A stretch of DNA of 64,000 bases from positions 12,739-76,738 of the forward strand of contig QKMY01000058.1 of assembly GCA_003242895.1 (NCBI GenBank), read 5' to 3'. Each line of letters begins with the position of its first letter. Within the stretch, counting starts at the first letter, position 1. This DNA is from Candidatus Margulisiibacteriota bacterium. GTDB lineage: Bacteria; Margulisbacteria; Riflemargulisbacteria; GWF2-39-127. The position numbers were made by a program, and so were the translations under genes. Positions 6,001-31,634 of this stretch are shown here, piece by piece. The notes under the pieces were generated by a model. The model was given only the letters and a program-made list of their open reading frames with translations. It was not told the origin of the DNA and ran no database searches.

Positions 6001-9000
6001 CGGCAGCATCCTTGGTCCATAAGTAGGACGTCCGAGTTCCATTATTTGTATTTTTCAGTACAAAATAAACCGGAGGCGTACTCTGCCATAATGGGTCCGT
6101 CAAGCTTGGATTCGTTGACTGTGTCTCACTTATTAACCAGGCGGAAGACCTTTGATCGTAGTTATAACTTACGCCTACTACAAAATCATTGGTAAACTGA
6201 CTACTTTTCGAGTCAAGATCATACAGGATAAATGTAGGAGTAATTAAGGCAATATTAACGGTTAATTGATTACTAAAATAAATGCTCGAATATTTTAACC
6301 ATTGAACACTTGTACCGTAATTACGAGCATTATCTGTAACCTGAGCACTAAAATAAGCAGGCCCGTTGGCAGTTTGACTATTAATCGTGATTGAACCGTA
6401 AAACTGGGTTCCAGTTCGTCCTAAAATAGTTACCGGAACAGCAGCTTTCTGATATGGATTAAAATACAAATTAGGAGTGACTGATATTCCACTGGGGATA
6501 TTTAAAACATTAATAGTAACATTGAGGTTCTTTGTAGCAGTAATAGGATTTAACGGATTATGGTTAATATCGATTCCAATTTCCGGTATCAGGTTATCAT
6601 ACACAATGGTTGTAGTATTGGAGTTGATATTAAGCGCATAATCTTTGCCCCAGATATAGACATTATGAGTTCCCTGTACATTCGTCAGCTGATAGCTGGT
6701 TGGTTTGGCGCCCCAGTTACTATCTGCAGTATCAGGGACAAAAGCGCTATTTTCGGTTATTATCCACGAGTTGATATCACTGGAACCGCTTAAGGTCAGG
6801 TCAACTACCCGGGCATTTGTATAGAGTTCACTGCCAGTCAGCTTATCAAACAGTCTAAAGGTACTAATGTTCGGGGAAGTAGAATCAATAGAGATCTGCC
6901 CGCCAGCAAGAATCCCGGTCCCAACATTACTAGCATTGTCAGTTATCTTAATACCGAAGGTACCGAGGCCGTTCATTCCACTAGAATTGAACACCCAGGT
7001 ATATTTGGTACCGGATACCTTTGCCGCTGGGCCCAAAACAACACTTATTCCATTTACCGTTAAGCTCAGAAGTGGTGTTTCCTGTAGCGCTTCGCTTAGA
7101 TTAACGGTTATGGTTTTAACTCCGCCGTTTACATATGGACTGTTATCGATATCTACTGATACCGCGAAGGGAATGACATCATCATAATTAATCGTCGCAA
7201 CGGTTGAAACCGGACTTATTATTTCGTTCCGGTTCTTTACCCAGACGAAGAGGCTCTTCAACTCATTTACCCTATTTTTAAAAGTATAAGTTATTGGCCT
7301 ATCAATTCTCCAGTTTTGATCATTTGCTTCCGGAGCTACTCCAGTGCTGCTCTCACTTAATAACCAGCGTACCGCATCAGGATCGTTCCCGATATTCACA
7401 CCGATCATCTGATTATTAGTATACTGAGAGCTTGAGGTACCACGATCGAACATTGTAACGGTGGGTACTGCTACGTTTCTATTTATTCTTATTTCACCAC
7501 CGTTGATTGAGCTTATTCCGGTATTATAATAAATTTTATTTACCCGGGTTGTTGCATTACCTACAACATCGGTGACACTTACTTCAAAATTAGCAGTTCC
7601 AATAACGGTAAAAGGTACTATTCCCGAACAACTGTAACTGTTACCACCACTATTGATGATACTGCTTAAAGGCACCTCTACTTTATCCTGGCCATAGAGC
7701 TTAATCCATAAGCTAGCAGTACTTATTTGTGTTTCGTTATCCATACGTAAGGTAACGGTAACCGGGGTGCTGCTATAAACATTATGGATGTCTCCGATGC
7801 TTAATAACTGGATATCTACTGTGGGAGGAGTGTACATAGAATCATAAACAATACTGGTTGCCACATCAATCGGGCCACCCGCAAGATTATTGTTTGCGGT
7901 AGCTCGGGCAGATATATTTTGAGCAAGGTCTTTTACCCAGATGTACAATTTCTTTGCACCTTGGTCTCCGCTTAATGTGTATACCTCCGGCACTATGCCT
8001 GACCAATTACTATCATTAGCTTGAGGGGTAAAAGTATTATTCTCGGTTACCAGCCACCAGCCTATACCACTTCCACTATCACTGCTTTTTATCTCCAGAT
8101 CTACTCTATTTGAATTGGTATAGAGCGTGCTCCCAGTCAATCTATCCATAACCTTAAAACTTGTAACAACCGGGTTGGACTTATCAATAACGATACTTCC
8201 GCCACTCAGTATCTGCGAGCCAACATTATTCGCGTTATCAATTATCCTTACGCCAAATACTGCCGCACCTTCAGGTGTTGCGCCATCAATAGTCAGCGTA
8301 GCCGTATAGAGGCTGGGGCTTACTTTGGTCAGATTAAGGTTTGTTTTGACACCGCCATTAAAAGTGACCCACATTTCCGGGATCACCGCATATGGCAAAT
8401 AGGTTAGCTCTTCACTTAAATTAATGGTAACGGTTTTTGTTCCTGCACTAATATTAGGCATATTAGTAATATCTATAGAGACTACATATGGCAGCGTGGC
8501 GTCATAATTAATGGCAGCAGATGTACCGGCACTTATATTACCCATCGCATCCATGATCCAGGAATATATAGTCTTCAAGCCATTGGTATTATTTTTGAAA
8601 GTATACAAAGGCTGGTTCGAGTTTGACCACCGGCTATCCTGGGGAGAAACCGGAGGCGTATTTACTTCCGTCAGTAGCCAGTAGGAAGCTGCCCCTCCAC
8701 CCTGTAGAGTTACTGATACTACCAGATCATTAGTCCAAACCGTGCTGTAGGTGTCCTGATCGCTGAGGATCAACGTAGGTGTACCGATAATTCCCTGAGA
8801 AAAAATAAGTGACTGAATTAACTTCTCTTTTGTTGCAGTCCCGGCATTATTGGTTGCTGACAGATAGAATTCGATAGAATTAGGAGTTATGCCCGGATTA
8901 AATAAAAAATCGCCTTTATAAATATATTCCCCTGTATAATTTCCCAGACCATAATTTAAGCCTGATCCCGATAAAACAATTGGAGTCGAACTAGAATTAT

Positions 9001-12000
9001 CTTCATATCTATATACCATCTTTAATTCAGGTATAGACTGGAAATTGGGCAGTAACGAAATATCTTCTATCGACATATTTAAAGTAACATGTACCCAGGT
9101 CCCTCTGCTAATGATCTTCGGAGACAACTCAAGGGTACCATCCGGCGCACTCGCCATAATATATAGAGTTGTCGAACTTATGCTGACGTTACCTGCCCGA
9201 TCAGCTACTTCTAAATAAAGCGTCCGCATTCCTTCCGCTAATCCAGTAAACTGGAACTGCTGCCCGGTAAACCATTCAGACCAGGCGTTATTGTCAACCT
9301 TAGCCCGGAATGGACGATCTTTTAACTGACAATTATCTGCCGCCGGAGTCCAGCTTACAACAACATTATTCTTGTCATAGTAACCGGACTGCGGCCAATT
9401 AACGGCAAACCCGGTCGGACTGACAGTGTCCACATTTACTGTAACATCTTTTGTAGCCACATGGCCGGCAGCATCAGCCACTTTGATTTGGATAGATACG
9501 ATTCCCTGGACCGCCCCTACATTTATATCACCAATCGTATTCAGCGAAATACCCGATGACCAGGTTAGCCCATTATTCGTACTGAAAAAATAGGTTTTTG
9601 TATTAAGACTGACACTATCCCATGCCGGATCCCATTTTAAAGTAATCGAGCTATCATCATACCAGTTCGGTTCAGGATCAACTCCGTCTCCACCAGAATC
9701 AGAATCCTCACGAACTTCAACGAAATAAAAATTCGGAGTGGTAGTATCTACCCATTGCGAACCTACTGCTGAGGCTTTTATATTACCAGCCTTATCTGCT
9801 ACTGCCACATTAAAAGTAGCAGGTTTATAGATATTCGCCGAAGTATAGACATTCATCGTATTCGTATTATATGGAGTCCAGGATACTGTACCGATAGAAT
9901 TCTTTGCAAAATAAGGAGATGACGTGAACCCACCGACATCCTGCATTGCGGAAGTGGGAATTGTATATACGACAACAGTTTCTTTCCCATAATAGCCGAT
10001 GTCCGGCGTTACATCACCAATAAGGACCGGAGGACAAGGCAGAAAATTGACAGGAAGAAGCAGGTCCGGGCCTAGTATTACCGGGGCGACCATATCCACA
10101 TAAAACCCAGCCTGGGATTCAGTAACGTGTCCGGCCCTATCTCTTGCCTGAACATAGCCCAGGTTTTGATAACTGCCGTCATTGGAATAGGCGACAAAAT
10201 TAACGGCATTGCCATTATATGCAAATCCGCTCCAAGCATTCCATTCTGTATTAGCCGGAATATCGCTCGTTGCCACTCTGTAACGGTAAGCACCACCAGA
10301 TTGATATGGTCCGGAGGCATCTGACATTTCCCAGGAGAAATCTACAGTGTTGTCATCATAATAAGGAAATATGGGAGAGATTCCGTCACTATTGCTATCA
10401 CTATCAGGAGCAATCGCCATATTTAAGACAGGGGCCGTCAGATCGACAATTATGTTTTTTGAAAAAGTCGACGAATTGCCGACACTATCTCGAGCTATTA
10501 CGTATACGGTATGAACCCCTTCGCTTAAAGAACAGGTTAGACTTCCGTTCGCAGATTGTCCCCAAACAGGCGCAGCAGAATCAAGCTGATAAGCAACTGA
10601 GTTAATTCCTGAACCTGAATCACTAATACTCCAGCTAAAACCTACGGTTGTTTGATCAAAATACCCATTCTCCGGTTGATAAATGCTCGACCCGTCAGTA
10701 TCATCGGCAATAGTTATAGAACCGACAGGGCCAGTTGTGTCGATAAGGAATGGCCCTATATGGGTTGAATTTGTACTATAGTTAGCTACCTTGTCTTTTG
10801 ATCTGACATGAAACCATAGATTATTCCCATCAATCAATGAAGCCTGGTAATAAATATTAGCCGCAGCGACACCAGGCGCAGGCTCTGTATTGGAATTAGT
10901 ATCCCAAGAGTATACGTATCCATCTAATCCACTGTGTGCGTCACTTGCCTGGTTCCAATCGATTCTTACTACAGGGTTATTACTCCAGGTACCGGTAGTA
11001 TGTCCAGACGTACATCTAACGTTGGCTACATCAGTTGGGGGGGTTACATCCACCCAGAATGGACCACGATGAGCAGTAGAAGCAGAGATATTTATGGCTT
11101 GATCCTCCGGGCGAATATGCAGCCAATAATTCTGAGCAGATACTAGCGCAGAGGCAGGAAACGTATAATATGTCACGTTACCGAAACCATTATCGCTGCT
11201 CGTTACCAATGTACCGGAAACATTATCGAGCTTATATCTATAGGTATTAATGCCACTACCGCCTTGATCATACGATGTCGTCCAGTACGCACCGATATTT
11301 GGTAACCATGTACCAGTTGCAGGAGCGGTTATTGAAATGTCAGGAGGAATAGTCGTATCGATTTTTAGCAGAAAACTAGTAACATTCCCCCATGTTCCAG
11401 CATTGTTTTTTGCTCGTACATTGATTGAATAGGTACCTTCAGTTTTAGTTATTTGGAATGTTTGCAGAGGGTCACTGCCAGCAGGATCTACGATGATAAT
11501 CCCGTTTGTATCACCAGGGGTAGTGCCATCGGTTGTATAGCTATATCTATCAATTCCAGACACACTAAACGGGGCATTAATTGAAAAGGTAAAAACTCCG
11601 CTCTTATTCGTCCATCCGTTTACTCCATCCGGCATTGATGCGCCTCCGCTGTGGACACAGCTCAAAACCGGCCCTGCAGGAATAGCCGCATCAATCTTAA
11701 ATGGTCCTAAATTAGCTTCCACACCGACATTTCCGACATTATCCACAGCATGCACATGGAAATATGCGGTTGCTGAATTGGGCAGTACAATATTATTTAA
11801 TTGAGTTCCCACCGTATCATAGGTGCCATCAGCCAAAGTACCGGCAGATGCATTCGCGGCATACGAGTATCCGGCTACTCCTGATTGTGTGGCGTAGGTA
11901 ACATTATCATTTGAAGCATTCCACTGCATCGACAACATATTATTAGCTGTCCAGATCCCATTAGCCTGAACACCTGCTGTTCTTATTAATCCGGTAATAT

Positions 12001-13696
12001 TTGAAGGATTGGTCACATCTACCCAGAATGGCCCGCGATGAGCAGTATTGTAAGAAAGGTTGCTGGCGGAATCTTCAGGACGGATATGCAGGTAATAATC
12101 CTGTGCAGTAACGAGTGGAGAAGGAAGAAAAGTATAGCTAGTCACATTACCTACTCCGGAATCAGTGCTGTTTAACACTGTTGCTGAGGCCCTATCAAAT
12201 CTATATCGATAGGTGCTGATATTACTTCCGCCCATATCATTCGACATATTCCAGTATGCATTAACACTTTTCATCCAGGTGCTTGTATTCGGAGCTGTTA
12301 TCATGATATCCGGAGGGTTAGAAATATCTATATTTAATATAAAAGTCCTCGTTTGACTCCAGACGCCCGAAATACTTTTAACTTTTGCTTTAAAAGTATA
12401 AGTCCCTTGCGTTGAATAGGTACTTGGTAATGTGTATGAACTAGCAGCCTGGTCAATGATTGTGTCTGGTTCTGATCCATCCGTTGTATAGCTGATCCCT
12501 GCCATTCCGGAAATATTGCTCGGCGCTGTTATCGTAATCTGATGTCCAGTCAGGTTAGTCCAGACATTACTTACAGTACCCCTGCTGCTCACTATTGCCG
12601 GAGCGGCAGTGGAAGCATCTATCCAGACTTGGCTAAGGCTTGCCTCTGAACTCTCATTGCCTGCATTATCAACAGTCTTTACATATAACGTATATTTTCC
12701 ATCGATCGGACTGGCTTGAGAGGCACTTGTACCTGTAGTCGTACCTGAATAGGTCGTGTTAGTGCCAACCAACCTCCAACGATATTCTTTTAGTCCGCTC
12801 CCGCCAGAATCTGTAGCTGCAGTCCAGGAAAATGAAATCGGAGTTGCATTATTTGTATACCAGGTATTAAGTGTATGGGAAGTGCAGGAGAAACTTCCTG
12901 GTATCGAAGGGGCTATTGAGTCTATATAAAAAGGTCCCACATTAGTTGGAAGCGTTCCGGTATAGGTATGTCCCGCATCATCATTAACTACATTAAAATT
13001 AAGATATTGAGCGGTTGTGCTGGAAGTGTTGTAATCAAAAACATATGTTGGGCTATTTGAGGTATAATTTCCCCAATTCGTATATATATTTAATGGAGCG
13101 GCTCCACTGTCGTTTGTTTGCACTGTTACACGGACACTTTGATACCATGTTGGACCGCTGCCGGTTTTTACGGTTGATTGTGAAACAGAAGAAATAGGGT
13201 TCCAGTCAGCTTTGATTGTTATGGAATCAGAATATTGACTGCCATTAATGTAACAGGTTCCAGTATGAGTATTTGAACCCCCATTTGAGATTGCCCCATT
13301 CGGATTGTTAACATACAGAGAGTATGGGCTTGCATGACCACATCCTCCTGATGAGTAACTGATAGTGTAGCTTGAATATCCTGAGTTGGTAATATATCCG
13401 TTTGTCAAAGGAGCAGAACAGTAGAGACTGGCATAAGCTGAATAATAATCATGATAATCGTAATGTCCCGCAGAACAATATTGACAAGGATACGAGTAAT
13501 ATCCAGTACAATTCCCCATGCCGTCGTAGCCAGTGCAATAGCCGCAGGAGGTCCAAGCATACGAATCACACACCCACCAGTTATGGTATCCAGGCCAGGA
13601 AGCTGAAGATGCCCAGCTACCAGCGGCAGTGATTAGCAACATAATCACCCCGAAAAATAACGCATATAAAAATGTAATATTTTTAATCTTCCTCAA
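1..13696 (-). CDS. Giant secreted Ig-like repeat surface protein (partial, C-terminus lies beyond window start); >=4565 codons in window
   Basis: Manual minus-strand translation in the frame with codon first bases at coordinates = 1 mod 3 runs from TTG 13696 to position 2 without a stop. GAGGA 6 nt upstream; in-frame TGA at 13706-13708; alternative ATG at 13642. N-terminus MRKIKNITFLYALFFGVIMLLITAAGSWASSASW looks like a signal peptide. Recurrent motifs such as LYLWVKDRAGNIS and VTVTDNAGN. Not in the supplied ORF track, presumably because there is no stop inside the window. Confidence 0.85.
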   Translation of the reverse strand, partial: MRKIKNITFLYALFFGVIMLLITAAGSWASSASWPGYHNWWVCDSYAWTSCGYCTGYDGMGNCTGYYSYPCQYCSAGHYDYHDYYSAYASLYCSAPLTNGYITNSGYSSYTISYSSGGCGHASPYSLYVNNPNGAISNGGSNTHTGTCYINGSQYSDSITIKADWNPISSVSQSTVKTGSGPTWYQSVRVTVQTNDSGAAPLNIYTNWGNYTSNSPTYVFDYNTSSTTAQYLNFNVVNDDAGHTYTGTLPTNVGPFYIDSIAPSIPGSFSCTSHTLNTWYTNNATPISFSWTAATDSGGSGLKEYRWRLVGTNTTYSGTTTGTSASQASPIDGKYTLYVKTVDNAGNESSEASLSQVWIDASTAAPAIVSSRGTVSNVWTNLTGHQITITAPSNISGMAGISYTTDGSEPDTIIDQAASSYTLPSTYSTQGTYTFKAKVKSISGVWSQTRTFILNIDISNPPDIMITAPNTSTWMKSVNAYWNMSNDMGGSNISTYRYRFDRASATVLNSTDSGVGNVTSYTFLPSPLVTAQDYYLHIRPEDSASNLSYNTAHRGPFWVDVTNPSNITGLIRTAGVQANGIWTANNMLSMQWNASNDNVTYATQSGVAGYSYAANASAGTLADGTYDTVGTQLNNIVLPNSATAYFHVHAVDNVGNVGVEANLGPFKIDAAIPAGPVLSCVHSGGASMPDGVNGWTNKSGVFTFSINAPFSVSGIDRYSYTTDGTTPGDTNGIIIVDPAGSDPLQTFQITKTEGTYSINVRAKNNAGTWGNVTSFLLKIDTTIPPDISITAPATGTWLPNIGAYWTTSYDQGGSGINTYRYKLDNVSGTLVTSSDNGFGNVTYYTFPASALVSAQNYWLHIRPEDQAINISASTAHRGPFWVDVTPPTDVANVRCTSGHTTGTWSNNPVVRIDWNQASDAHSGLDGYVYSWDTNSNTEPAPGVAAANIYYQASLIDGNNLWFHVRSKDKVANYSTNSTHIGPFLIDTTGPVGSITIADDTDGSSIYQPENGYFDQTTVGFSWSISDSGSGINSVAYQLDSAAPVWGQSANGSLTCSLSEGVHTVYVIARDSVGNSSTFSKNIIVDLTAPVLNMAIAPDSDSNSDGISPIFPYYDDNTVDFSWEMSDASGPYQSGGAYRYRVATSDIPANTEWNAWSGFAYNGNAVNFVAYSNDGSYQNLGYVQARDRAGHVTESQAGFYVDMVAPVILGPDLLLPVNFLPCPPVLIGDVTPDIGYYGKETVVVYTIPTSAMQDVGGFTSSPYFAKNSIGTVSWTPYNTNTMNVYTSANIYKPATFNVAVADKAGNIKASAVGSQWVDTTTPNFYFVEVREDSDSGGDGVDPEPNWYDDSSITLKWDPAWDSVSLNTKTYFFSTNNGLTWSSGISLNTIGDINVGAVQGIVSIQIKVADAAGHVATKDVTVNVDTVSPTGFAVNWPQSGYYDKNNVVVSWTPAADNCQLKDRPFRAKVDNNAWSEWFTGQQFQFTGLAEGMRTLYLEVADRAGNVSISSTTLYIMASAPDGTLELSPKIISRGTWVHVTLNMSIEDISLLPNFQSIPELKMVYRYEDNSSSTPIVLSGSGLNYGLGNYTGEYIYKGDFLFNPGITPNSIEFYLSATNNAGTATKEKLIQSLIFSQGIIGTPTLILSDQDTYSTVWTNDLVVSVTLQGGGAASYWLLTEVNTPPVSPQDSRWSNSNQPLYTFKNNTNGLKTIYSWIMDAMGNISAGTSAAINYDATLPYVVSIDITNMPNISAGTKTVTINLSEELTYLPYAVIPEMWVTFNGGVKTNLNLTKVSPSLYTATLTIDGATPEGAAVFGVRIIDNANNVGSQILSGGSIVIDKSNPVVTSFKVMDRLTGSTLYTNSNRVDLEIKSSDSGSGIGWWLVTENNTFTPQANDSNWSGIVPEVYTLSGDQGAKKLYIWVKDLAQNISARATANNNLAGGPIDVATSIVYDSMYTPPTVDIQLLSIGDIHNVYSSTPVTVTLRMDNETQISTASLWIKLYGQDKVEVPLSSIINSGGNSYSCSGIVPFTVIGTANFEVSVTDVVGNATTRVNKIYYNTGISSINGGEIRINRNVAVPTVTMFDRGTSSSQYTNNQMIGVNIGNDPDAVRWLLSESSTGVAPEANDQNWRIDRPITYTFKNRVNELKSLFVWVKNRNEIISPVSTVATINYDDVIPFAVSVDIDNSPYVNGGVKTITVNLSEALQETPLLSLTVNGISVVLGPAAKVSGTKYTWVFNSSGMNGLGTFGIKITDNASNVGTGILAGGQISIDSTSPNISTFRLFDKLTGSELYTNARVVDLTLSGSSDINSWIITENSAFVPDTADSNWGAKPTSYQLTNVQGTHNVYIWGKDYALNINSNTTTIVYDNLIPEIGIDINHNPLNPITATKNLNVTINVLNIPSGISVTPNLYFNPYQKAAVPVTILGRTGTQFYGSITINSQTANGPAYFSAQVTDNARNYGTSVQWLKYSSIYFSNQLTVNIALITPTFILYDLDSKSSQFTNDFVVGVSYNYDQRSSAWLISETQSTNPSLTDPLWQSTPPVYFVLKNTNNGTRTSYLWTKDAAGNINTVPAIAIINYDNVFPQATSINFERGRYIKAGTSRVTVNISESVSATPDFYLTFMGSKRTITFDYFDGLTLAGFFTVDPNENGTAVINLTITDNALNITNVIPAGLISTINFDTVLPPDPTLGVNTSGLNRPDNSSGYTNTPTINVTISKDPDYFRYVIRELTAVPSENAEDWMPEPVQYRFVYETQGTRNLYLWVKDRAGNISNQYAFNSIVYDIDIPTGSLKLKCQANRSNQITNSLSNIVELAANDTDYYIITENAQFGKPDPLAAVWSAVKPANYDFDPDNIEEGPRYLYCWLMDKSGNINNVVVTTSIYYDPSVPNIGLLLTKSGWISTGDVSVTLDIGENIIVTPDLTYEVGGTTYSVELTPVDITRNAFIATLNVTEAFPNGFLTFHMTITDNAGTVTSDTFSYGTTTLNVDTVIPIIATAAIYDMDKPNSYNLTNDNPFNITMAITESTIKGYYISSNLIADPASIPPGTWLSERPQTYFHSESQGQYGYYIWVKDHAGNISLPRYVSTNFDAIAPTVSVEMARPPGVATFYGIGVVAVTINFNEPIASDSLSINIVCVADNRVNTLTYTVVNSQLVTGSFSVDGSFGDGRQFFRIIAEDLVGNRRVSDKPQGNYLENLDWPNTFVVATGIGFVSLKILDRDNLNNFSSSKYTNERYINMLFDQVALVTHYMITSNIGIKPVLVDITSPNNSESNEFSLNNYYISPSLAPDNQETVVTYNLWVKGASDIHNESTINASILVDLLTPEVTVSLNEGIKKIHAGEYILTVSVTEYIPSNNIKNSKFTYFNAATKILSFTPVGSPDSNNFYNTFRTTINIDSDTPSGQMTLSFNTYDKAGNRVDISTTYDISVVPNPSFNITDTNNGSPVFTNELTVSLNIISDDFADFYIITENATYYTRPERSFTAWRPKAEYTDSYTLSSGDGPKTLAFWVKDSSDPFEANINTKLITRTITLDTMEPTVNIRIGKTLGIGYSTVTFNYNEPILVAPSYFITMTPASGSPNALTRSIDILYSVSSNHTWIGQVEIRPFDVNDTATISGQTIDRAGNLSTSLFGTVTFSIDTLIPDPTFNIIDTDTDSNLYVNDLVVGLQIGNDKDAVKYMVSYTQSTQPTLNSPGWNADKPSNFTLKNVVNENKKLYLWVQDAYKNINKNVVSANIFYDDTPPQTEVKFGYRPYIKEGDYKITLNITQEILALNNTPDFKVQYAGQEALAIDIVPMDSSRYLWVGTINVNAEAPEGVATFSLSVTDNASNVQNKIISGMQTFVIDKTRPSAPGFTAYDPITLIQSYTNQRTIGVSVNIDSSVYMWYLSDQTNVTPDFDAVGWLTQQPTTFTFSDMVISTKNIKLWIQDRAGNISSTGSRSIYLDYDEPTATILISTYPNVKAGILNITLNVSEATLVGVSLNYTLYGYGEVARNVTLNQVSALTYTGTINVTEDFANGAALFNVQLVDYSGNRSNKLSGDIVFQVDTLLPEFSVHSIPDCYLNNTTLNITLNVSEAVSATPSVIFHSDIDAPVIMSCIGLNVWTGSLYISDSLGFDSSASLDVTVTDNAGNRSLAFVKPYTIDKIPADFTVESIKNSPNLAIGSYTLTLNVSEHTINPPQAYFSMSDSSTHSILMSRSINNYWAGDIIISDGYPEGICTINIRVTDYAGNVTSIFGGIVTFNVLITLADPTMNITDRTSGDKIYTNEYSIAVDVGNDNTAVKWMVNETQSVKPEWNAAGWQSSKPNLYTLNAGPEGHRKVYLWIQDSARNINKTIVSQNIILDTIKPVSQINMTKRDFVSIGAVSLTLSIQEDTPATPELKLVYADGSTLNFLLNGVSPNIYTATFNVFQNDPQGVASFYLCVTDNASNVQNTLVGDKQFVLDTVASTPSFVIFDYDTGDTNYTHDLLPRVIINSDADVVSWILSEVQPTRPSPTSNYWRNEKPYEYTFRNTDFGIKTVYLWVKDSAGNINDMAVTRSISYFRSTSVNIEVTAIKIFNQTGSTYSYIRP
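100..7960 (-). repeat. Tandem coding repeat array inside the giant gene: ~13 diverged copies of a ~200-220 aa two-domain module (period ~600-680 nt)
   Basis: Motif [LF]W[VI][KQ]D-x-AGNI recurs at approx. 135, 740, 1925, 2555, 3180, 3805, 4485, 5095, 5405, 6020, 6640, 7240, 7930, interleaved with a second motif (V-T/D-D-N-A-x-N). Copies are conserved at protein level but diverged at DNA level. Confidence 0.7.
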
Positions 13697-13727: not shown

Positions 13728-15068
13728 CTATTTTGCACATCTGAACCCTGTACAGCCACAAGGACTCGAAGGAGCTATTCCGGCCATAATGGAAAAAACC
13801 CCTGATTGTTCATTCATTTTGTGTTCTCCGCCTCTCAGCAAAGCGGCAGGGAAGCATTGTCCTTCCGCTTGATTAGAAGCTGATTTAACTTCACTAACAC
13901 TATCGTTACCATAGGAAACTCCCGTATTAGGAAAAAATCCGGGATCATACTGACCTTTACCGATTCTTATCATTTTCAGGGTTTCTACTATCAATTTCTC
14001 TATATCCTTAAATTTTGGATCAATTTCTAATGTAAATGCTTTCATATCAGGCTGAAATCTACTCGATATCTTTCTGTTTTCATCGAGGTAATAATTCTTC
14101 TTTAATTCTTCCCAGATTTCTTCAGATTTAAACGAGGTTTTTTTTTCAATCTCATCAAAGGCATTTTTTTGTACTGGCCCCTGATAAAACATGCCATTAC
14201 CCTGCATCCAGTCGCTTACCCATTCATTTACATTCCCCGCCATGCCAACACAGCCAAAGGTAGAAATTTCCTGAGCGGCTATAGTGTCCCAGGAGGCCGG
14301 AAGTTCCCCTCCCCGCCCTTTGCTTAACGCCGTGCCTGCTGCGCCGTCCTGCCATTCGCCGTTTGTCACCAGCCGCTTCCCTGCGTTAACTGCTGCCCTG
14401 CGAGCGACAAACCAGGTCATTCCGGTCGAACACTCAGCCCTTTGAGAAAAAGCCATCCAATATGGTGGCACATTCTGGCCATTACCCGCCAAAATCCCAA
14501 AATCATTATGATTATGATCATGTTGGCTGTCTTTTTTATTTTCGTTCCGCTGAATAAAATATGTCCCTTTTACGTCAGCACCTTTATAATCTGCACCCAC
14601 ATCAATTATCCGGCAGGAATACTTATCTATCCAAACGGTACCTACCTTCACCTGTATATCATCTTGCCCGCATCGGTATGCCGGCATATCCGGATTGTAT
14701 TTGTTATTAATATGAGTTCCTGGCGGCAACTGATCCAGTTTGCCATGAAAAAAACCGACATTATTTCCTGTTACTATCCAGGAAACAGGATCTCCAGGAT
14801 CAATTGTGCCCCGGCTGGCATCTATGACTTTATTATATTTCCAGGCCCTTTCTTCATCATCCCACCCTACCCATAGAGCATTAAACATTAGATAACTCTG
14901 TCCATTATTGCTAAAATCCGGCCATTGATATACCGGAACAGAGTTAGCATAATAGTTGGGTAACCGGTTATCAACCTGCTGAACCGCGGCTTCGCCGACA
15001 ACTGAAAATACCATTAAAAAAAAGCATAGTGAAAGTATAATTCTGATCTTGTGATAAAATTGCATCAT
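13728..15068 (-). CDS. FGE-sulfatase/SUMF1-family domain protein (formylglycine-generating-enzyme-like; GldK/GldJ-like possibility), secreted
   Basis: 446 aa with N-terminal signal peptide. Motifs AGKRLVTNGEWQDGAAGT and MAGNVNEWVSDW resemble the FGE signatures RLPTEAEW..ARGG and GNVWEW. ~140-aa C-terminal extension ending PCGCTGFRCAK. 31 bp upstream of the giant gene, same strand. Confidence 0.65.
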   Translation of the reverse strand: MMQFYHKIRIILSLCFFLMVFSVVGEAAVQQVDNRLPNYYANSVPVYQWPDFSNNGQSYLMFNALWVGWDDEERAWKYNKVIDASRGTIDPGDPVSWIVTGNNVGFFHGKLDQLPPGTHINNKYNPDMPAYRCGQDDIQVKVGTVWIDKYSCRIIDVGADYKGADVKGTYFIQRNENKKDSQHDHNHNDFGILAGNGQNVPPYWMAFSQRAECSTGMTWFVARRAAVNAGKRLVTNGEWQDGAAGTALSKGRGGELPASWDTIAAQEISTFGCVGMAGNVNEWVSDWMQGNGMFYQGPVQKNAFDEIEKKTSFKSEEIWEELKKNYYLDENRKISSRFQPDMKAFTLEIDPKFKDIEKLIVETLKMIRIGKGQYDPGFFPNTGVSYGNDSVSEVKSASNQAEGQCFPAALLRGGEHKMNEQSGVFSIMAGIAPSSPCGCTGFRCAK

Positions 15069-15076
15069 CGTCTCCC

Positions 15077-15790
15077 TTATAATAAAAATAAAATACCTAG
15101 CGCTAAAAACGTAAAAGCCATAACCAACTTAAACCAACCTATTTTTTCTGTCAAAAATCCGGAAAGCTTCCGGGAAGAAAGCCCGCTGTAAGTTAATAAT
15201 CCGATTATGATTAAAGGAAAAACAAAAAATACGTTATAAACGAACAATAGCAATGTGCCCTTTATCGCAGAACCGGTTTTTATCATATACAGAATCGAAG
15301 GGAAATATATCTGTCCGGTACAGTTCAGCTCAAATATAGATACCAGGAAACCTAATACCAGTGAGGCAATCACGATATTTCCTGTCATGGTTTTCTCTCT
15401 GATTGCGTTTTTAATTCTTTTTTGTAAAAAGTCCGGTAACCGTAAGATGAACTTATTTTTTTTTGTAAATGCCAGATAAGCATCATAAAAAGAAAGGGCC
15501 GAACCAATGAATGCAAGACCTGCTATAACGCATTGAAAAAGCCTGGCAACAATAAAGTATGAACCGGTTTTATAAAGAAATTGAAATAAGCCAAACCCTA
15601 TCAAAAAATAGGTAACAAACACTGCTATCGTAAATAATGCAAAAGAAAGCATCATTTCCTGTTTTCTCTGTCGTACTGACAGGTACGAGAGCAAAAAAAT
15701 TACCGTACCAAATGCACACGGATTTATTCCGTCGATTAAACCTGCCATGCATATAGTAATAAAACTGAGATTAACCAAACTATTTAGCAT
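15077..15790 (-). CDS. CcdA/DsbD_2-family thiol:disulfide transmembrane electron-transfer protein
   Basis: 237 aa, polytopic and hydrophobic. N-terminal motif GLIDGINPCAF and a second membrane-embedded Cys (FELNCTGQIY), as in the cytochrome c biogenesis transmembrane (DsbD_2) family. Confidence 0.55.
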   Translation of the reverse strand: MLNSLVNLSFITICMAGLIDGINPCAFGTVIFLLSYLSVRQRKQEMMLSFALFTIAVFVTYFLIGFGLFQFLYKTGSYFIVARLFQCVIAGLAFIGSALSFYDAYLAFTKKNKFILRLPDFLQKRIKNAIREKTMTGNIVIASLVLGFLVSIFELNCTGQIYFPSILYMIKTGSAIKGTLLLFVYNVFFVFPLIIIGLLTYSGLSSRKLSGFLTEKIGWFKLVMAFTFLALGILFLL

Positions 15791-16880
15791 CCTCTCTCAT
15801 AATATGATCAAGCTGTCTCTCTATCTCAGTTTTACCTGCCAGTAACAGTCCATTAAAATATAGTGCCGGCAGATCAAGTTTATTTCCCATTATCTTCATA
15901 TAAGTCTTATAATTATCAGGCTCTTCCAGAGGATAAAAAACAACCTCATAATGTTTATTATGAGCAGCTAATACCTGCGGGATCTTCTTTGTTCTTAGTT
16001 TGTGACAATAGGCACAATTACTGTTAGAAAATACATAAATAATATCCCTGGATAACCTTGTATCTTTTTGCTTTTCCTGACCTCTTAACTCTTTATAATA
16101 TTCGAGCATCAGACCCTTAAGCTTTTTTGAGGCCATAAAACTGTCGGCAGGTATCATTTTCTGGGAGATGAGATTAACGGTCCCCTTCTCTATGCTAAAA
16201 ACCATCTTTCCAAGGAATTGAGCATCTTTTCCTGCTGATACAAAATGTGTCTGCCCTACTGTAAAAGAATTCTGATACTCACTTTCACTGGAGACAATAA
16301 TATCAATCCAAGGGAATTTCTTCGCGATTTCAATATTCTCTTTTTTAGAAAGCTGGGATAATAAAACTGTCAGGTCAGCTGATTTTTTTTGTACACTAAA
16401 GTGCCCTGACAAATACGTCTCGAATGCAGATTGCTTATCAGCAGCAACCCCGAGAATGATTATAGTGACTCCGGATTTCTTAACCGAAATGTATTTCTGG
16501 GTTTGTGCACCTGATTGAACAGAGGATACAAGAGGAAGTTCACGTACCTGGTTATCTGCCGGCACATCCAGGTTAATTGCATCATATTTAAATAAGTTCA
16601 TAGCGGCTGCAACATACTTGTTTTTTGCACTATTATCAGGTAAAAAAGTTCCTCCGTTATCAACTATTACTAAATTAGGATTGCGTTCCCTTTCTTTTTC
16701 AACAAGAGGCAATAGCAACTCTAGTCCGCCATTCGCTTCTGTTGAACAATTACACGATTCTAATTTCCCGTTGATATTAGAGGTAAACAGCAGGGTAATA
16801 GTTTCTGCATTCAAAAAATTACAACTGCACATCGATAATACAGTAATAAGAAAAAAATAATTAATAATAATTCTACCCAT
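15780..16880 (-). CDS. Exported thioredoxin/glutaredoxin-like CxxC protein with N-terminal degenerate metallophosphoesterase-like domain
   Basis: 366 aa with signal peptide. C-terminal thioredoxin-fold-like segment with CAYC (YVFSNSNCAYCHKLRTKKIP...). N-terminal part weakly resembles a calcineurin-like phosphoesterase (ITLLFTSNINGKL, LVIVDNGGTF) but lacks the usual His/Asp ligands. Overlaps the CcdA-like gene by 11 bp. Confidence 0.5.
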   Translation of the reverse strand: MGRIIINYFFLITVLSMCSCNFLNAETITLLFTSNINGKLESCNCSTEANGGLELLLPLVEKERERNPNLVIVDNGGTFLPDNSAKNKYVAAAMNLFKYDAINLDVPADNQVRELPLVSSVQSGAQTQKYISVKKSGVTIIILGVAADKQSAFETYLSGHFSVQKKSADLTVLLSQLSKKENIEIAKKFPWIDIIVSSESEYQNSFTVGQTHFVSAGKDAQFLGKMVFSIEKGTVNLISQKMIPADSFMASKKLKGLMLEYYKELRGQEKQKDTRLSRDIIYVFSNSNCAYCHKLRTKKIPQVLAAHNKHYEVVFYPLEEPDNYKTYMKIMGNKLDLPALYFNGLLLAGKTEIERQLDHIMREDAK

Positions 16881-16900: not shown

Positions 16901-19561
16901 TTATTTACTGTTCTCGATACTAGCTATAACTTTTTCAGCATCAACAGAATCGCTTATCAATAGAGAACCTGGGACCCCTCCGGGCAGAGCATTACGAATG
17001 AACGCATCAATATCCTCCTGGCTTGCTTTACCGATATGGCCAAAACTCTTTTTGATTAACGTAACTATACCTTGCTTGCTTAGGTGTTTAGCAACTCCGA
17101 CAACTTGTTCCTGTGCATCTATTACTTCAATATTAGTAATCGTTTTGCTCTTAAGCTCAATTACCTGATTGACCATATCACGCATACCTTCTGTCAGAAT
17201 GCTCCTAATGTGCTCACTGTCAGTGTTATCAATATGAACAATCGCTGCTGCTGCTATATAGGGATCAACAACGGAAAAGATCTGACGGAGTGCGGTGTCG
17301 TCCAGCAGCAACAGATCTTCGAATAACAGGATCATATCTCTGATCTCTTCAAGTACATCCGGGAACCTTTCAGCCATAACCTTAGTAAGCTCAGTCTTGT
17401 CGTTGTCCCTTATCTGATTAAGAAGCCCAAGGACAACTTCTCTTCCACCAACAAGGCTTGATAGTTTCTCCCTTATACGCGTGTCCAGAAACTCTATCTC
17501 TTCTTTACTATATTGGTTACTATAAACCAAATATGAAAGTACTTCTGCTTGCTCTAAATGGCATAACTGAGACAGAATAATATTAGCCATAGACGGCGAT
17601 AAATAAGATAAAATTATTGATATTTTTTCTAGATCGATTTGTCCCTGTTCATATTCTGACTTGAGCAAATTCCTTAGCTTAAAAATATTCCCTTCATTAA
17701 CAAATGCAAAAAATCCGACAAATGAATTCGATGTCAAATCAATGGACGCTGCCGCTCCAATCGGTCCCGAACCAGCATCTTTCGATCCCTCGCTTGCTCC
17801 ATATCCAGCCCCAAGAGTTAGCGCGCTTGACGAAGCTGCTCCAGATTTATCAGCCATTTTAGTCACACCATCGGAAACTACCGATAAAGATTTCCTGAAT
17901 AAAACGCCTATCAATAAAATAACTACAATGATTGCAGCAGTATTAGCTATAGAAACATAATGGTTGATTCCTAATGCCAGCGACTTTTTAGATTGTGAAT
18001 CCGAAAAATCCCCCGTTTGTGAGACACTCTTGTATTCTGCCCTAAACTTATCAACTATATTTTGTACGTCGAGAACAGTGTCCTTTCGAACTCTGTAAGC
18101 TATTTCTTCATTTTTCGATAGCCTGTCTTCCACCAACTTTAAATTTCGATTAAGTTCTTCCTGGATATTTTGATTATTATTAAAGAATTTATCTGCGACA
18201 GAAGACATAGATTCGTCACTAATTTTATCTTTAGTTATGAACAAATTTTTATTCATTTTTACCGGAAAATCAAAAAAACCATTCACAATACCAACGATTT
18301 TCTTCTCTTTATTACTATCGATATCAGTTGGCACAGTAATATATACATTTACATCTTTAATAAAATATTTGTCATATAAATTGGTCGATTGAATAGGAAC
18401 ACCAGGCAATAATGATTTTTCCTGAATTGGGGAAAACAGATCAATACCGATATCCAGCTTTAATAAAACAACGATATCTTTGATATTCAACTTTTTTCTG
18501 ATAACATTTTGTAACCTGGTTTCCAATGTCTGTTCCAGTTCTGTTTGTTTTCCAATAAAAGCACGGTCCTGTTGTCTGCCCTCATGCTGAAGAAATTCTC
18601 TCACCAGTTTGTTATCAGGATCGATTTTCAGGACGTTATTCCAGTCTTGTCTTGCCTTATCAAAATTATCCAGCAAAAAATTAGCGGACCCTCTTCTCAT
18701 TAACGCCGCTACATTTTTAGGGTCTACATCCAAAACTTCATTGCATTCTTTAACAGCATCATAAAACTTCCACTCGTTTATATATTTTAAGGCCCTTGCT
18801 AATTTCTCTTCAATTATTTCATCAAAATCATTCTGTTTGATAATATTGTGAACATCGTTTATTAAATCCTCAGATTTTTTTGTATTCAAGTATTTACTAA
18901 CGCTATCATCCAATAATTTATTCTTGATAAAAACATTAGCCTCTCTCTTCGGAAATTTAAATTCGTTCTTGAATTTAGCGATTTTGTCACTAAATCTATC
19001 TGTATTTGACAGCATTTCAACCATTTTTCCCCGAGACAAATAGATCCTATCTTCTAACGGAGAAGATCCAGAGGCCAGATTGGCGCTACCGTTATAATAA
19101 TTTTTTGGAAAAACCAACAATTTATTGATTATTTCAGCGGCTTCTTTTTCCTCGATGAATGACTTTGGATAAAATTTCTTATTGTCGGGAACACCAATTA
19201 ATTTCAGATTAACAGCTCTGCATATAGCCGGAGCTGCACTATAGTCTTCAGGCACATCAACAAAAAAGTTGGAATACTTATAGTTATCATCTTTATCTGT
19301 TAAAGAAACGATAAATGTAATGAATTGGCTTTTATTGATTAAACGGTCTGAATTAAATAAATTACCTTTATTAGGGATGAGGAGCTTGTTTGTAACAAAA
19401 TAATATATTTCTTTGGCATAAGGATCTTTTTCAGATATGTCTTTGAGAACAAACGTTTCCGATTTTTCGGCCTTCGTTACAACAACATCACCTATGGTAG
19501 CTTGAGCCATTATGAATATCAACGCTATTACAGCGATAATTGTCCGTTTTAATAACTTCAA
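16901..19561 (-). CDS. Bitopic membrane protein: periplasmic TPR-containing domain, one TM helix, Gly/Ala/Ser linker, cytoplasmic FliG-like (FliG_M + FliG_C / MgtE_N-like) domain
   Basis: 886 aa; TTG start with AAGGGGGA RBS. TPR-like segment YDAVKECNEVLDVDPKNVAALMRRGSANFLL..NNVLKIDPDN. TM helix SIANTAAIIVVILLIGVLF. C-terminal ILSYLSPSMANIILSQLCHLEQAEVL and MILLFEDLLLLDDTALRQIF resemble the FliG middle and C-terminal signatures. Confidence 0.6.
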   Translation of the reverse strand: MKLLKRTIIAVIALIFIMAQATIGDVVVTKAEKSETFVLKDISEKDPYAKEIYYFVTNKLLIPNKGNLFNSDRLINKSQFITFIVSLTDKDDNYKYSNFFVDVPEDYSAAPAICRAVNLKLIGVPDNKKFYPKSFIEEKEAAEIINKLLVFPKNYYNGSANLASGSSPLEDRIYLSRGKMVEMLSNTDRFSDKIAKFKNEFKFPKREANVFIKNKLLDDSVSKYLNTKKSEDLINDVHNIIKQNDFDEIIEEKLARALKYINEWKFYDAVKECNEVLDVDPKNVAALMRRGSANFLLDNFDKARQDWNNVLKIDPDNKLVREFLQHEGRQQDRAFIGKQTELEQTLETRLQNVIRKKLNIKDIVVLLKLDIGIDLFSPIQEKSLLPGVPIQSTNLYDKYFIKDVNVYITVPTDIDSNKEKKIVGIVNGFFDFPVKMNKNLFITKDKISDESMSSVADKFFNNNQNIQEELNRNLKLVEDRLSKNEEIAYRVRKDTVLDVQNIVDKFRAEYKSVSQTGDFSDSQSKKSLALGINHYVSIANTAAIIVVILLIGVLFRKSLSVVSDGVTKMADKSGAASSSALTLGAGYGASEGSKDAGSGPIGAAASIDLTSNSFVGFFAFVNEGNIFKLRNLLKSEYEQGQIDLEKISIILSYLSPSMANIILSQLCHLEQAEVLSYLVYSNQYSKEEIEFLDTRIREKLSSLVGGREVVLGLLNQIRDNDKTELTKVMAERFPDVLEEIRDMILLFEDLLLLDDTALRQIFSVVDPYIAAAAIVHIDNTDSEHIRSILTEGMRDMVNQVIELKSKTITNIEVIDAQEQVVGVAKHLSKQGIVTLIKKSFGHIGKASQEDIDAFIRNALPGGVPGSLLISDSVDAEKVIASIENSK

Positions 19562-19585: not shown

Positions 19586-20827
19586 CTAATACTGATTTTC
19601 CAAAGAATTCTCTATAAATTTAAGCAATTCCATTATCGAGCGGTTTGCCGGCATATACTTTTCTGCATTTTTCGCTTCATTATAAGCATCCATGACCCTG
19701 TCAGCCTTCAACAATTCCCTGGCTTTCTGAATGTGCTCCCACGCTTGCTTTTCATCCGCCAGCGAATATGTTTTCAGTTTTAAAATATTATCCAATTTCT
19801 CTATTTGCTCTTTAATCTCGGCAGTAAGCTCTGCAATAGTTCCCGCGGAGCTATAAGATTGCCTGGATAAATTGTAAAAACCTCTTTCCTGGTACATAGA
19901 ACCCTCAAGAATAAGTTTATCACACTCTTTCTTAATAACCTCTTTTTTATCGTCACCAAAGTTTAAAACCATAGAAAATTTCATCGTATCGCCTATGGTC
20001 TCTTGTTTACCTAACGCTAAATCGAACTTAAACATCAGATATTCTATACCTATGCCAAAAGTGAGTTCGTTATAATTAATCCCACTTCGAAGATAAAGCA
20101 TATCCAACAGCTTGTATTCCGCCCCTAAATACCACTGATCAAAGGAATCTGTGATATCATAGGCAATTATCCAGTCATTATCAGCGTAACTAATGCCACC
20201 ACGCCATACCATAGGGATAGTATCTGCAGTCATCGAAGGAGCATTATTCATCACATAAATATTATTAAGTACTGCGCCTATAGTCATTTTATCTAAAATC
20301 TTATAATTTAAGCCTAGATCAAAAACAAAAAAAGAATCAGAGCTAACATCCAACTCTCGATTAAACATTTTGAATCCAATACCGTAAGACAATTTATGAT
20401 CAAATTGTTTGGCATAGCCAAGGCACAATGCACTACTCTTATCATTAAATGAACCTATATTATTGTTGTCTTTATCTGTTTTTATAAATCCGACTGAATC
20501 AGATAAATTGATTAGCCCTCCTCCATACGTTTCGTATAACCCGGGATAAACAAATGAGAGAACAGAATAAGAGTAAGCTTGGAACATTGAGGCTGACATA
20601 AAAAGGAAAGACATTTTTGGTACATCTACTAAACAAGCAGGATTGCGATAAACAGATGAAGCATCCTTACTATTTGTTACATACGTTCTCCCCATTGCAA
20701 AAGACCTTGCATCTGCTCCGTATGAGAATAAAGCTCCAGGCTGACCCGCATCAAGCGCTTGAGAACCGCCGACGAAAAAGATCAGGTTTAAAACAAAAAA
20801 AATAATTAGAAAGACACTTTTTAACAT
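19586..20827 (-). CDS. Outer-membrane beta-barrel protein, PorV/PorQ-like N-terminal signature, plus C-terminal alpha-helical domain
   Basis: 413 aa with signal peptide. N-terminal motif GADARSFAMGRTYVTNSKDASSVYRNPACL matches the PorV/UPF0164-type signature. Alternating amphipathic beta pattern for ~290 aa, then a ~120-aa charged helical tail. First gene of the operon. Confidence 0.45.
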   Translation of the reverse strand: MLKSVFLIIFFVLNLIFFVGGSQALDAGQPGALFSYGADARSFAMGRTYVTNSKDASSVYRNPACLVDVPKMSFLFMSASMFQAYSYSVLSFVYPGLYETYGGGLINLSDSVGFIKTDKDNNNIGSFNDKSSALCLGYAKQFDHKLSYGIGFKMFNRELDVSSDSFFVFDLGLNYKILDKMTIGAVLNNIYVMNNAPSMTADTIPMVWRGGISYADNDWIIAYDITDSFDQWYLGAEYKLLDMLYLRSGINYNELTFGIGIEYLMFKFDLALGKQETIGDTMKFSMVLNFGDDKKEVIKKECDKLILEGSMYQERGFYNLSRQSYSSAGTIAELTAEIKEQIEKLDNILKLKTYSLADEKQAWEHIQKARELLKADRVMDAYNEAKNAEKYMPANRSIMELLKFIENSLENQY

Positions 20828-30959: not shown

Positions 30960-31634
30960 TTATTGTGTTTGTAAACTATATTGTAAAACAGCTGTCCAGG
31001 TAGCCGGAGCTGTTGTTGCTGTAAAACCGAGTCGATACCAAGCTTTTATTGTGGTTTCTGTTAGCTGTTGTTCACCAGATGCAATTTGACGTGCAGAATC
31101 AGCAAGTGTAGCTGAACCTTTAGTCCACGTTGTCCCATCTGCCTTCCAGCATGGATCTTGTTGTGCTGCAACGCCAACTTTGTACCATGGCCAGTATTGA
31201 CTATCCTTTACATTTAACCATGCAGCCGCAGCGGTGTTTGTTGGTAGAGTTGCGCTAACGGTTACACCAAGAGGTTGCTGTGATCCGGAATAATCAACTC
31301 CCATATTTCCAAGTGAGTAATCAACCAGACCATCGATTTTAACGTTTTCATCAGCATTTGTTGTAGCCGCAACGTGACTCGCATTCATAACGAATAGCTG
31401 CCATGATGATTTGTTTGTCGAATAAGCAATATTGGTTGCTGTTGTAACAATTATTGTAGTCGCATTGACTGTAAGGGCATTTAATGTAGGCGCCTGTCCC
31501 CCTGAAACAGTATTTACTTTCAATATTGTGGTATCGGCAACTGTTGCCTGAATACCAATCAAACCATAGTTTGCAGCGAAGGCTGCTGAACTCATAAGCA
31601 TTAAAGCTAAAACCATAAATAGTATTTTTTTCAT
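30960..31634 (-). CDS. Secreted Thr/Ala-rich protein (candidate fibre/pilin-like subunit) with mature N-terminus ANYGLIGIQATV
   Basis: 224 aa; ATG with AAAGGTGGG RBS; signal peptide MKKILFMVLALMLMSSAAFA, then the same motif as the mature N-terminus of the 1268-aa protein. Confidence 0.5.
   Translation of the reverse strand: MKKILFMVLALMLMSSAAFAANYGLIGIQATVADTTILKVNTVSGGQAPTLNALTVNATTIIVTTATNIAYSTNKSSWQLFVMNASHVAATTNADENVKIDGLVDYSLGNMGVDYSGSQQPLGVTVSATLPTNTAAAAWLNVKDSQYWPWYKVGVAAQQDPCWKADGTTWTKGSATLADSARQIASGEQQLTETTIKAWYRLGFTATTAPATWTAVLQYSLQTQ

Follow-up and report, generated by a model that had tools for sequence, protein, structure and literature searches.

Cysteine-rich modules and the thiol pathways that serve them are known from several settings that resemble parts of the locus described here. 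This locus lies in a 64,000-nt stretch of contig QKMY01000058.1 (assembly GCA_003242895.1; hereafter the window, to which all positions refer) from Candidatus Margulisiibacteriota bacterium. Margulisbacteria, the sister phylum of Cyanobacteria, are uncultured and poorly known. The element in question, which we call the cap, is a Cys/Tyr/His-rich module of ~65 residues (aa 30–97; 13406..13609, minus strand) in a giant Ig-like-repeat protein, delimited by composition, statistics and homology searches. Its nearest structural precedents are the Cys4 knuckles of zinc ribbons and rubredoxins, in which two CxxC motifs lie 10–20 residues apart. The cap likewise has two CxxC motifs, set 16 residues apart among many aromatic residues, and a low-confidence AlphaFold model would put a β-hairpin between them. 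It differs from those knuckles in lacking any family homology, in being exported by the predicted Sec route and not cytoplasmic, and in having three Cys more, placed symmetrically in a Cx7 layout. The bulk composition of the cap is also similar to that of the mussel foot protein Mfp-6, a Gly-rich, Cys/Tyr-rich interfacial redox protein with roughly 20% Tyr and 11% Cys. This is an analogy only and implies no homology: Mfp-6 is eukaryotic and works with 3,4-dihydroxyphenylalanine (DOPA) chemistry and oxygen, whereas a tyrosinase is absent from the cluster that encodes the cap.

Three other described systems bear on the genes around the cap. The DsbD–DsbC/DsbG, CcdA–ResA/StoA and ScsB–ScsC pathways couple a DsbD_TM protein with two membrane Cys to an exported CxxC partner, and two neighbours of the giant gene appear to form the same combination; the partner in the window differs in having a UshA/SoxB-like N-terminal domain with a conserved CNC and one detectable homologue. 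Another neighbour shares the fold signature and the ...RGG...GVFA...APS......GFRCA scaffold of the variable proteins of diversity-generating retroelements (DGRs), such as Mtd, TvpA and TaqVP. The window copy differs from these in having no associated reverse transcriptase (RT), Avd or template repeat (TR), in a ~100-residue helical insert, and in Cys residues at two hypervariable positions. Finally, the giant protein is like the SprB-type giant adhesins of the type IX secretion system (T9SS) of Bacteroidota in its Ig-like repeats, predicted N-terminal Sec signal, end resembling a T9SS C-terminal domain (CTD) and nearby genes of the PorV family. It differs from them in belonging to Margulisbacteria, in its sub-threshold CTD scores, and in that no SprA/Sov, PorK–N or PorU was seen among the scanned open reading frames (ORFs) of the window. 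To our knowledge, a Cys-rich N-terminal cap has not been described for the T9SS adhesins of Bacteroidota.

Composition, spacing and orphan status of the cap

The 5′ part of the giant gene, 13.7 kb long, occupies positions 1..13696 of the minus strand as a stop-free ORF that leaves the window at its left edge (4,565 codons within the window, counted from TTG). The full product has 5,692 aa (P0073 and L001). Exact matching assigns the window to contig MFRF01000005.1 of GCA_001783265.1, and near-identical contigs are present in several JGI, ENA and Logan assemblies. The start codon is TTG at 13696–13694 (minus strand), with a GAGGA Shine–Dalgarno sequence 6 nt upstream. Gene callers differ at this point: NCBI and JGI start at the TTG at 13696, which has the good Shine–Dalgarno sequence and gives 5,692 aa, and ENA and Logan start at an ATG 18 codons further downstream (window 13640–13696, minus strand), giving 5,674 aa, a shortened signal peptide and loss of the charged n-region. 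With the TTG start, aa 1–29, (M)RKIKNITFLYALFFGVIMLLITAAGSWA (13610..13696, minus strand), read as a predicted Sec signal peptide with a basic n-region, a hydrophobic core and a cleavage-like site SWA↓SSAS (aa 29/30; judged by eye). The Cys-rich patch begins ~10 residues past this likely cleavage site, in agreement with the original prediction, which had placed it at the mature N-terminus.

The peptide WWVC...CSAP on which that prediction was based is exactly aa 40–96 (nt 13409–13579, minus strand), within the interval 13380–13600 given for it. Its 57 residues include seven Cys (C43, C51, C54, C63, C71, C74 and C93), 13 Tyr, 3 Trp and 2 His, corresponding to 23% Tyr and 12% Cys, with Ser at 12% and Gly at 10.5%. 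It had been described as holding eight Cys and many Tyr/His in about 55 residues; the count needs correction to seven Cys and 13 Tyr in 57, and the patch itself is real. Two further Cys in the following domain, C119 and C148, bring the first 150 residues of the giant protein to nine. Elsewhere Cys is scarce, with 14 in the remaining ~4,400 window residues and 22 in the remaining 5,542 of the full-length protein, a background frequency of 0.40% beyond the first 150 residues, which bears out the statement that the rest of the protein is nearly Cys-free. At this background, the probability of finding at least seven Cys per 57 aa is 3.5e-9, or ~2e-5 when corrected for all window positions, and the Tyr excess (13 per 57 aa) has P = 2.5e-6. 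The Cys enrichment of the cap is ~30-fold, and the peptide is the Cys-richest 57-aa stretch among the long ORFs of the window. There is no Lys, Arg, Glu or Phe among residues 30–161. Lys and Arg are absent over the whole of aa 6–161 (window 13211–13681, minus strand), and the mature N-terminal tryptic peptide would be ~133 residues long; for want of Lys and Arg, standard trypsin-based (meta)proteomics would not see the module.

The Cys residues are spaced in a regular manner. Six of the seven form a duplicated Cx7CxxC core, C43-x7-C51-x2-C54, x8, C63-x7-C71-x2-C74 (13475..13570, minus strand), in which both copies read CxxYxxxxCxYC and the two CxxC knuckles are C51-G-Y-C54 and C71-Q-Y-C74. In shuffles of the same 57 residues, two successive Cys triplets of identical spacing (Cx7CxxC twice) arise in ~1% of cases, and the twin Cx7CxxC together with at least two CxxC in 0.3%. 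Tandem Repeats Finder detects no tandem repeat in the DNA under the duplicated core. The tail of the module, SAGHYDYHDYYSAYASLYC (13418..13474, minus strand; read from the sequence), alternates His, Asp and Tyr and ends at the seventh, unpaired Cys93. Comparison of the giant protein with itself reveals no internal relative of aa 30–100.

Three familiar fates of such Cys residues were considered and rejected. Haem c binding would need a CxxCH motif, and there is none in the cap: its CxxC motifs continue as CGYCT and CQYCS, with the nearest His four residues past C74. Lipoprotein attachment is rejected because no lipobox precedes C43. Maturation by a radical-SAM enzyme, as for ribosomally synthesized and post-translationally modified peptides, is rejected as well, the sole radical-SAM gene of the window being a lipoyl synthase (34817–35680) that lies ~21 kb away on the opposite strand.

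Homologues of the module were sought by a word-indexed search of 5.8e9 proteins, an exhaustive HMMER scan of 1.84e9 cluster representatives, and scans of GTDB species genomes and JGI metagenomes. The word-indexed search with the N-terminal 300 residues of the giant protein returned nothing, not even the protein itself, and is a weak negative. Such negatives are untrustworthy for giant proteins, the query's own sequence having been missed there and recovered by the exhaustive search of representatives. In that exhaustive search, aa 30–190 are matched by the protein itself only (Margulisbacteria metagenome-assembled genome (MAG) GCA_001783265.1). A further 32 matches cover just the Ig-like region, from ~aa 190 on, and none of these 32 proteins has the Cys-rich N-terminus. 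The GTDB genome scan for the module found nothing and the JGI metagenome scan recovered the source population alone. The strain variants of that population (L001–L006) are 99.5–99.95% identical with the first 430 nt unchanged, and their differences are too few to inform on selection. As judged by these searches, the cap is an orphan confined to one population; its sequence resembles a Cys-knuckle mini-domain yet belongs to no known family.

The adjacent redox genes and the state of the cap thiols

Upstream of the giant gene, genes for a PorV-like barrel, an SLH-TPR-FliG-like protein, a 366-aa exported protein, a 237-aa membrane protein and a 446-aa “FGE-like” protein (FGE, formylglycine-generating enzyme) follow one another on the same strand. 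From 20827 to 13696 the gaps measure 24, 20, –11, 8 and 31 nt, so that the spacing of the string into the giant gene is operon-like. A promoter and terminator scan gave results at chance level.

The 237-aa protein (15077..15790, minus strand) is a predicted CcdA/DsbD-type membrane thiol–disulfide electron conduit, with a Pfam PF02683 DsbD_TM score of 29.1 bits against a cutoff of 27.1 and two membrane Cys, Cys25 in GINPCAFG and Cys157 in ELNCTGQ. The 366-aa protein (15780..16880, minus strand), whose gene is the one that overlaps that of the membrane protein, appears to be an exported thioredoxin/glutaredoxin-like protein with the motif C289-A-Y-C292. Its family matches are all sub-threshold (Thioredoxin_2 at 18.6 bits against 27, DsbG, GRX and UshA-like), and the assignment is strengthened by P0072, a 633-aa natural fusion on a 147-kb JGI metagenome contig. 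Among 5.8e9 proteins the 366-aa protein has two homologues, itself and this fusion. P0072 is 33% identical to the 366-aa protein over the corresponding part and 47% identical to the CcdA-like protein over its C-terminal half, it shares the NC(A/S)YC motif (CAYC in the 366-aa protein, CSYC in P0072), and it keeps all four Cys motifs (ESCNC, NCxYC, NPCAFG and ELNCTGQIY), which points to functional coupling of the two window proteins. CcdA/DsbD-family proteins move electrons outward, that is, reductively. The two proteins are, to judge from their sequences, a genuine, coupled, outward-directed thiol-reducing module. The cap had been proposed as a substrate of these thiol-redox genes. The redox pair itself stands, on the evidence of the above-threshold DsbD_TM match, the CxxC partner and the fusion; the client link is plausible because the genes lie on the strand of the giant gene, 8–28 nt apart or overlapping. 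An observation apart concerns the N-terminal part of the 366-aa protein (aa 27–260), which is related at a sub-threshold level to the NCBIfam “UshA-like (seleno)protein” families and to SoxB. It has a conserved ESCNC, and the C-N-C of this almost orphan domain sits where metallophosphatases have metal ligands.

Our best reading, to which we give a tentative probability of about 40%, is that the cap is a metal–thiolate or disulfide-braced module on a fibre with a T9SS-CTD-like anchor, probably serviced by the CcdA/thioredoxin-like pair. We infer the fold, the choice between metal and disulfides and the client relationship from the sequence. The lineage-specific mini-domain would cover the N-terminus of a fibre of 5,692 residues made of Ig-like repeats, at the end remote from the cell. 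The CxxC knuckles C51/C54 and C71/C74, aided by C43/C63 and the HYDYHDYY stretch, would cross-brace the segment into a compact fold, and a metal–thiolate site of zinc-ribbon or rubredoxin type that is kept reduced is slightly favoured over a disulfide-bonded knot. The cap would be the first part of the giant protein to exit the Sec channel. The CcdA-type protein and its CxxC thioredoxin-like partner would then supply reducing power, keeping or re-shuffling the cap thiols before the giant protein reaches the surface. An equally good client would be the 8-Cys lectin-fold protein, whose gene lies between the redox pair and the giant gene; its thiols may be maintained by the same pair.

The slight tilt towards a reduced metal–thiolate has several grounds. 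One is the layout itself, with two CxxC knuckles 16 residues apart followed by the HYDYHDYY stretch. Another is the odd Cys count (7 in the module, 9 in the first 150 aa), together with the reductive nature of the adjacent pathway and the absence of an even-Cys bias from the exported proteins of the cluster, whose mature Cys counts are mostly odd or low (3, 3, 0, 5, 1, 1, 8 and 31). The physiology of the group also counts: for Margulisbacteria of sediments and aquifers, an obligately anaerobic life with no electron-transport chain is predicted, and cytochromes c are predicted to be missing from the host lineage (PMC6349859). A predicted anaerobic lineage argues against cytochrome c maturation as the task of the CcdA-like protein and also against routine oxidative disulfide formation. 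The literature on CX7CX2C spacing provides precedents of a generic kind only, in Fe–S and Zn sites.

Several results weigh against this reading. The sequence entropy of the cap is 3.45 bits against a protein mean of 3.77 ± 0.16, ~2 SD lower, from which a non-globular segment is possible. No orthologue was found in the databases searched, and hence no sign of selection on the Cys positions. Searches of the module against Pfam (E ≤ 10), NCBIfam and PDB sequences were empty, a PDB match to the structural-zinc lobe of alcohol dehydrogenase having E = 0.4, which is chance level. Single-sequence AlphaFold2 prediction of aa 34–270 is uninformative, with a mean confidence (pLDDT) of 35.7. The cap, the redox pair and the lectin-fold protein are not co-conserved at any locus examined. 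P0072 adjoins a PEGA-domain protein and a MacB-type ABC transporter, with no giant or FGE-like gene, and since the homologues sit in other contexts, the client link is one of adjacency in a single genome. We know of no documented case in which the surface fibre of a bacterium bears a Sec-exported knuckle domain for zinc or iron.

Foremost among the alternatives is an oxidized knot, in which three intramolecular disulfides among six of the seven Cys stiffen the tip and the CcdA/thioredoxin-like pair acts as a DsbD-to-DsbC-type isomerase system that repairs wrongly paired disulfides. We consider this possible, if doubtful. The extracytoplasmic location and the arrangement of six Cys as two symmetric triplets would suit it, and DsbD–DsbC systems typically serve multi-Cys clients. 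The active site of DsbC is CGYC and that of DsbG is CPYC, and CAYC is similar to both; this DsbC/DsbG-like CxYC motif of the partner, with its weak DsbG match, looks isomerase-like and keeps the reading alive. The odd number of Cys argues against it, as do the missing even-Cys bias noted above, the strictly anaerobic lifestyle predicted for the lineage (PMC6349859) and the fact that none of the oxidases DsbA, DsbB and VKOR was seen in the window.

A non-globular segment is unlikely in our view. As a low-complexity, Tyr/Ser/Gly/Cys-rich, charge-poor adhesive tip, it would be sticky towards mineral or cell surfaces; in a variant that we would place no higher, it would form intermolecular thiol or metal bridges, from fibre to fibre or from fibre to lectin-fold protein. 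The Tyr and Cys contents, the lack of K, R, E and F over residues 30–161, the lowered entropy, the seventh, unpaired Cys and the low-confidence AlphaFold model are all compatible with this reading, as are the unusual Cys437 and Cys439 of the lectin-fold neighbour. Low confidence is, however, to be expected of any orphan, the cluster encodes no cross-linking enzyme such as a tyrosinase or peroxidase, and the exact duplication of the Cys spacing together with the paired CxxC motifs suggests a structured site.

We think it distinctly unlikely that the cap is evolutionary debris, a recent lineage-specific linker with no specific function next to redox genes that serve other clients. Full orphan status and the lack of co-conservation of the accessory genes are what one would expect of such a linker. 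Drift would hardly produce a ~30-fold enrichment of symmetrically spaced Cys in an otherwise Cys-avoiding protein, and reactive exported thiols are usually selected against.

The lectin-fold neighbour and its DGR relatives

The 446-aa protein encoded next to the giant gene (13728..15068, minus strand) is, by Pfam, profile and alignment evidence, a predicted exported protein of the FGE-type C-type-lectin fold with 8 mature Cys. Its family alignment ends in ...PAALLRGGxWxxGxxAGVFAxxAxxAPSxxxxxxGFRCAR, which is the scaffold of an FGE-type C-type-lectin variable region, and the family profile matches FGE (2e-11), TvpA (4e-5) and the variable region of Mtd (4.6e-5) in the PDB. Among the closest relatives, at 46–53% identity, are a DGR variable protein and a protein from a phage contig. 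The former, P0005 (46% identical; locus L008, 10001–13221), has bAvd and RVT_1 genes downstream. The last 125 nt of its gene, the variable repeat (VR, 11101–11225), pair with a TR at 13097–13221, and 18 of the 19 mismatches fall at TR adenines. P0005 is, by these sequence features, a textbook DGR variable protein.

An active DGR in the window was rejected: there is no TR-like repeat of the 3′ end of the lectin-fold gene, and tblastn found neither RT nor Avd. In view of these absences, the window copy is not diversified locally. AlphaFold2 modelling of the lectin-fold protein with 28 sequences reaches a pLDDT of 66. Foldseek comparison of this model with the PDB gives weak matches, best to Mtd (probability 0.84–0.90, E ~0.03) and then to FGEs, and PHROGs searches give a weak tail-protein match; the structural matches agree with the sequence evidence without deciding the matter. 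The helical insert of ~100 residues spans ~aa 300–400, and Cys437 and Cys439 are unusual in that their positions are hypervariable in DGR-targeted relatives. A GTDB scan with the family alignment found distant relatives from other phyla only.

At one of the other loci, L007 10001–15311 (Elusimicrobia MAG GCA_026388155.1), a lectin-fold homologue is 38% identical over 96% of the query. Next to it come the gene for an 862-aa fn3-repeat protein that has a CTD-like tail and, after that, a PorV-like gene, so that the trio of lectin-fold protein, CTD cargo and PorV seen in the window recurs. This fn3 protein has no Cys-rich N-terminus and redox genes are absent from the locus. The other lectin-fold homologues are found in unrelated contexts.

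It is conceivable, though we regard it as very unlikely, that the cap is a docking site whose odd, exposed thiol or metal site bridges to the lectin-fold protein. This relative of DGR-diversified receptor-binding proteins, which has the unusual C437-G-C439 on the face that binds ligands, would thereby be mounted at the far end of the fibre as an exchangeable head. Fibre and head together would make a two-piece adhesin in an anaerobe, and a dedicated CcdA–thioredoxin pathway would set or reset the coupling; the chance that such an adhesin operates here is correspondingly slight.

The name “FGE-like” is itself misleading. The Pfam PF03781 FGE-sulfatase match (27.7 bits against a cutoff of 23.3) covers aa 260–302 only. 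The catalytic triad of human FGE is Ser333/Cys336/Cys341, with a Cu-binding Cys pair (PMC6328139). When the alignment is anchored on RGG, these positions correspond to E415/M418/G423 in the lectin-fold protein, and anchoring on GFRC gives E415/E420; there is no Cys between C405 and C437. On the substrate side, CxPxR and SxPxR are absent from all 5,692 aa of the giant protein, and the nine N-terminal Cys stand in the contexts CDSYA, CGYCT, CTGYD, CTGYY, CQYCS, CSAGH, CSAPL, CGHAS and CYING. The original suggestion that the cap is the substrate of this gene, with its Cys converted to formylglycine or otherwise modified, is almost certainly wrong: adjacency and the partial Pfam match are all that speaks for it, and against it stand the replaced triad, the missing CxPxR, family relatives that comprise a DGR variable protein, a phage-contig homologue and a weak PHROGs tail match, and the requirement of FGE for O2 and Cu in a lineage predicted to be anaerobic. 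Judged by sequence, the protein is a ligand-binding lectin-fold protein and no formylglycine-generating enzyme.

The giant repeat protein, its putative sorting context and significance

Behind the cap, aa 98–270 (12887..13405, minus strand) are recognized by self-comparison as a first, diverged Ig-like repeat that carries C119 and C148; its similarity to internal repeats is weak but significant (aa 1234–1390 at E = 1.6e-5). Pfam finds Y_Y_Y and Big_13 Ig-like domains only, from aa 299 on. The C-terminus of P0073, beyond the window, reads ...NYPNPFDSRQGITTITYF...IKIYDPFG...WDGRNDNGRKVGKGGYIGVF... The last ~110 residues (~aa 5565–5671) match the sorting-domain portion of a PorU model at E = 3.9e-9, and TIGR04183, the type-A sorting domain, scores 18.3 bits, under the cutoff of 23. 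A Gly/Glu/Ser-rich linker, SGGSGSGSGDGGGGGAGEGEGDGGGGGTGEGEGEGGGGT, is seen at ~aa 4880–4925 of P0073, and a T9SS type-A-like sorting domain at ~5600–5692.

Candidates for the sorting machinery are encoded upstream. The first gene of the string encodes a putative PorV/PorQ-family outer-membrane β-barrel of 413 aa (19586..20827, minus strand; NCBIfam PorV_fam E = 1.4e-22, 80.7 bits against a cutoff of 90). A second PorV-family barrel (23580–25910, minus strand; PorV_fam 121 bits against 90) forms one protein with two SLH domains and a FlgD_ig domain, and a second CTD-bearing protein, recognized by its CTD-like tail, is encoded at 26206–30012 (minus strand). The two PorV-family barrels and the CTD-like tails suggest, at the sequence level, a T9SS-like sorting or anchoring arrangement outside Bacteroidota. 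Should the CTD-like end serve for sorting and anchoring close to the cell, like that of T9SS cargo, the far tip of the very long Ig-repeat fibre would be formed by the cap; we infer this distal position by analogy.

Two further features of this region deserve mention. FliG is normally a cytoplasmic component of the flagellar rotor, and its domains are odd in the apparently exported, wall-binding SLH protein at 16901–19561. This protein (16901..19561, minus strand; 886 aa) has a predicted signal peptide and combines SLH, TPR and FliG_M/FliG_C-like domains (FliG_C E = 1.5e-12). In addition, the secreted proteins at 26206–30012 and 30960–31634 (minus strand) carry a near-identical motif after the signal peptide, ANYGLIAIQASIV and ANYGLIGIQATVA, which suggests a common N-terminal module or a paralogous pair.

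The general significance of the cap is limited by its being a single-lineage orphan without comparative support. The label “FGE-like” should not be taken here to mean a Cys-modifying enzyme, as the family is the lectin-fold scaffold used by DGRs and by phage tail proteins. The giant protein as a whole resembles T9SS-dependent adhesins but belongs to a phylum without an established T9SS. If the cap is a folded tip braced by metal or disulfides, it would make up the working end of a protein that is among the largest in its phylum, and for the orphan CcdA/thioredoxin-like pair a definite client would be in hand, in an organism for which the absence of cytochromes c is predicted.

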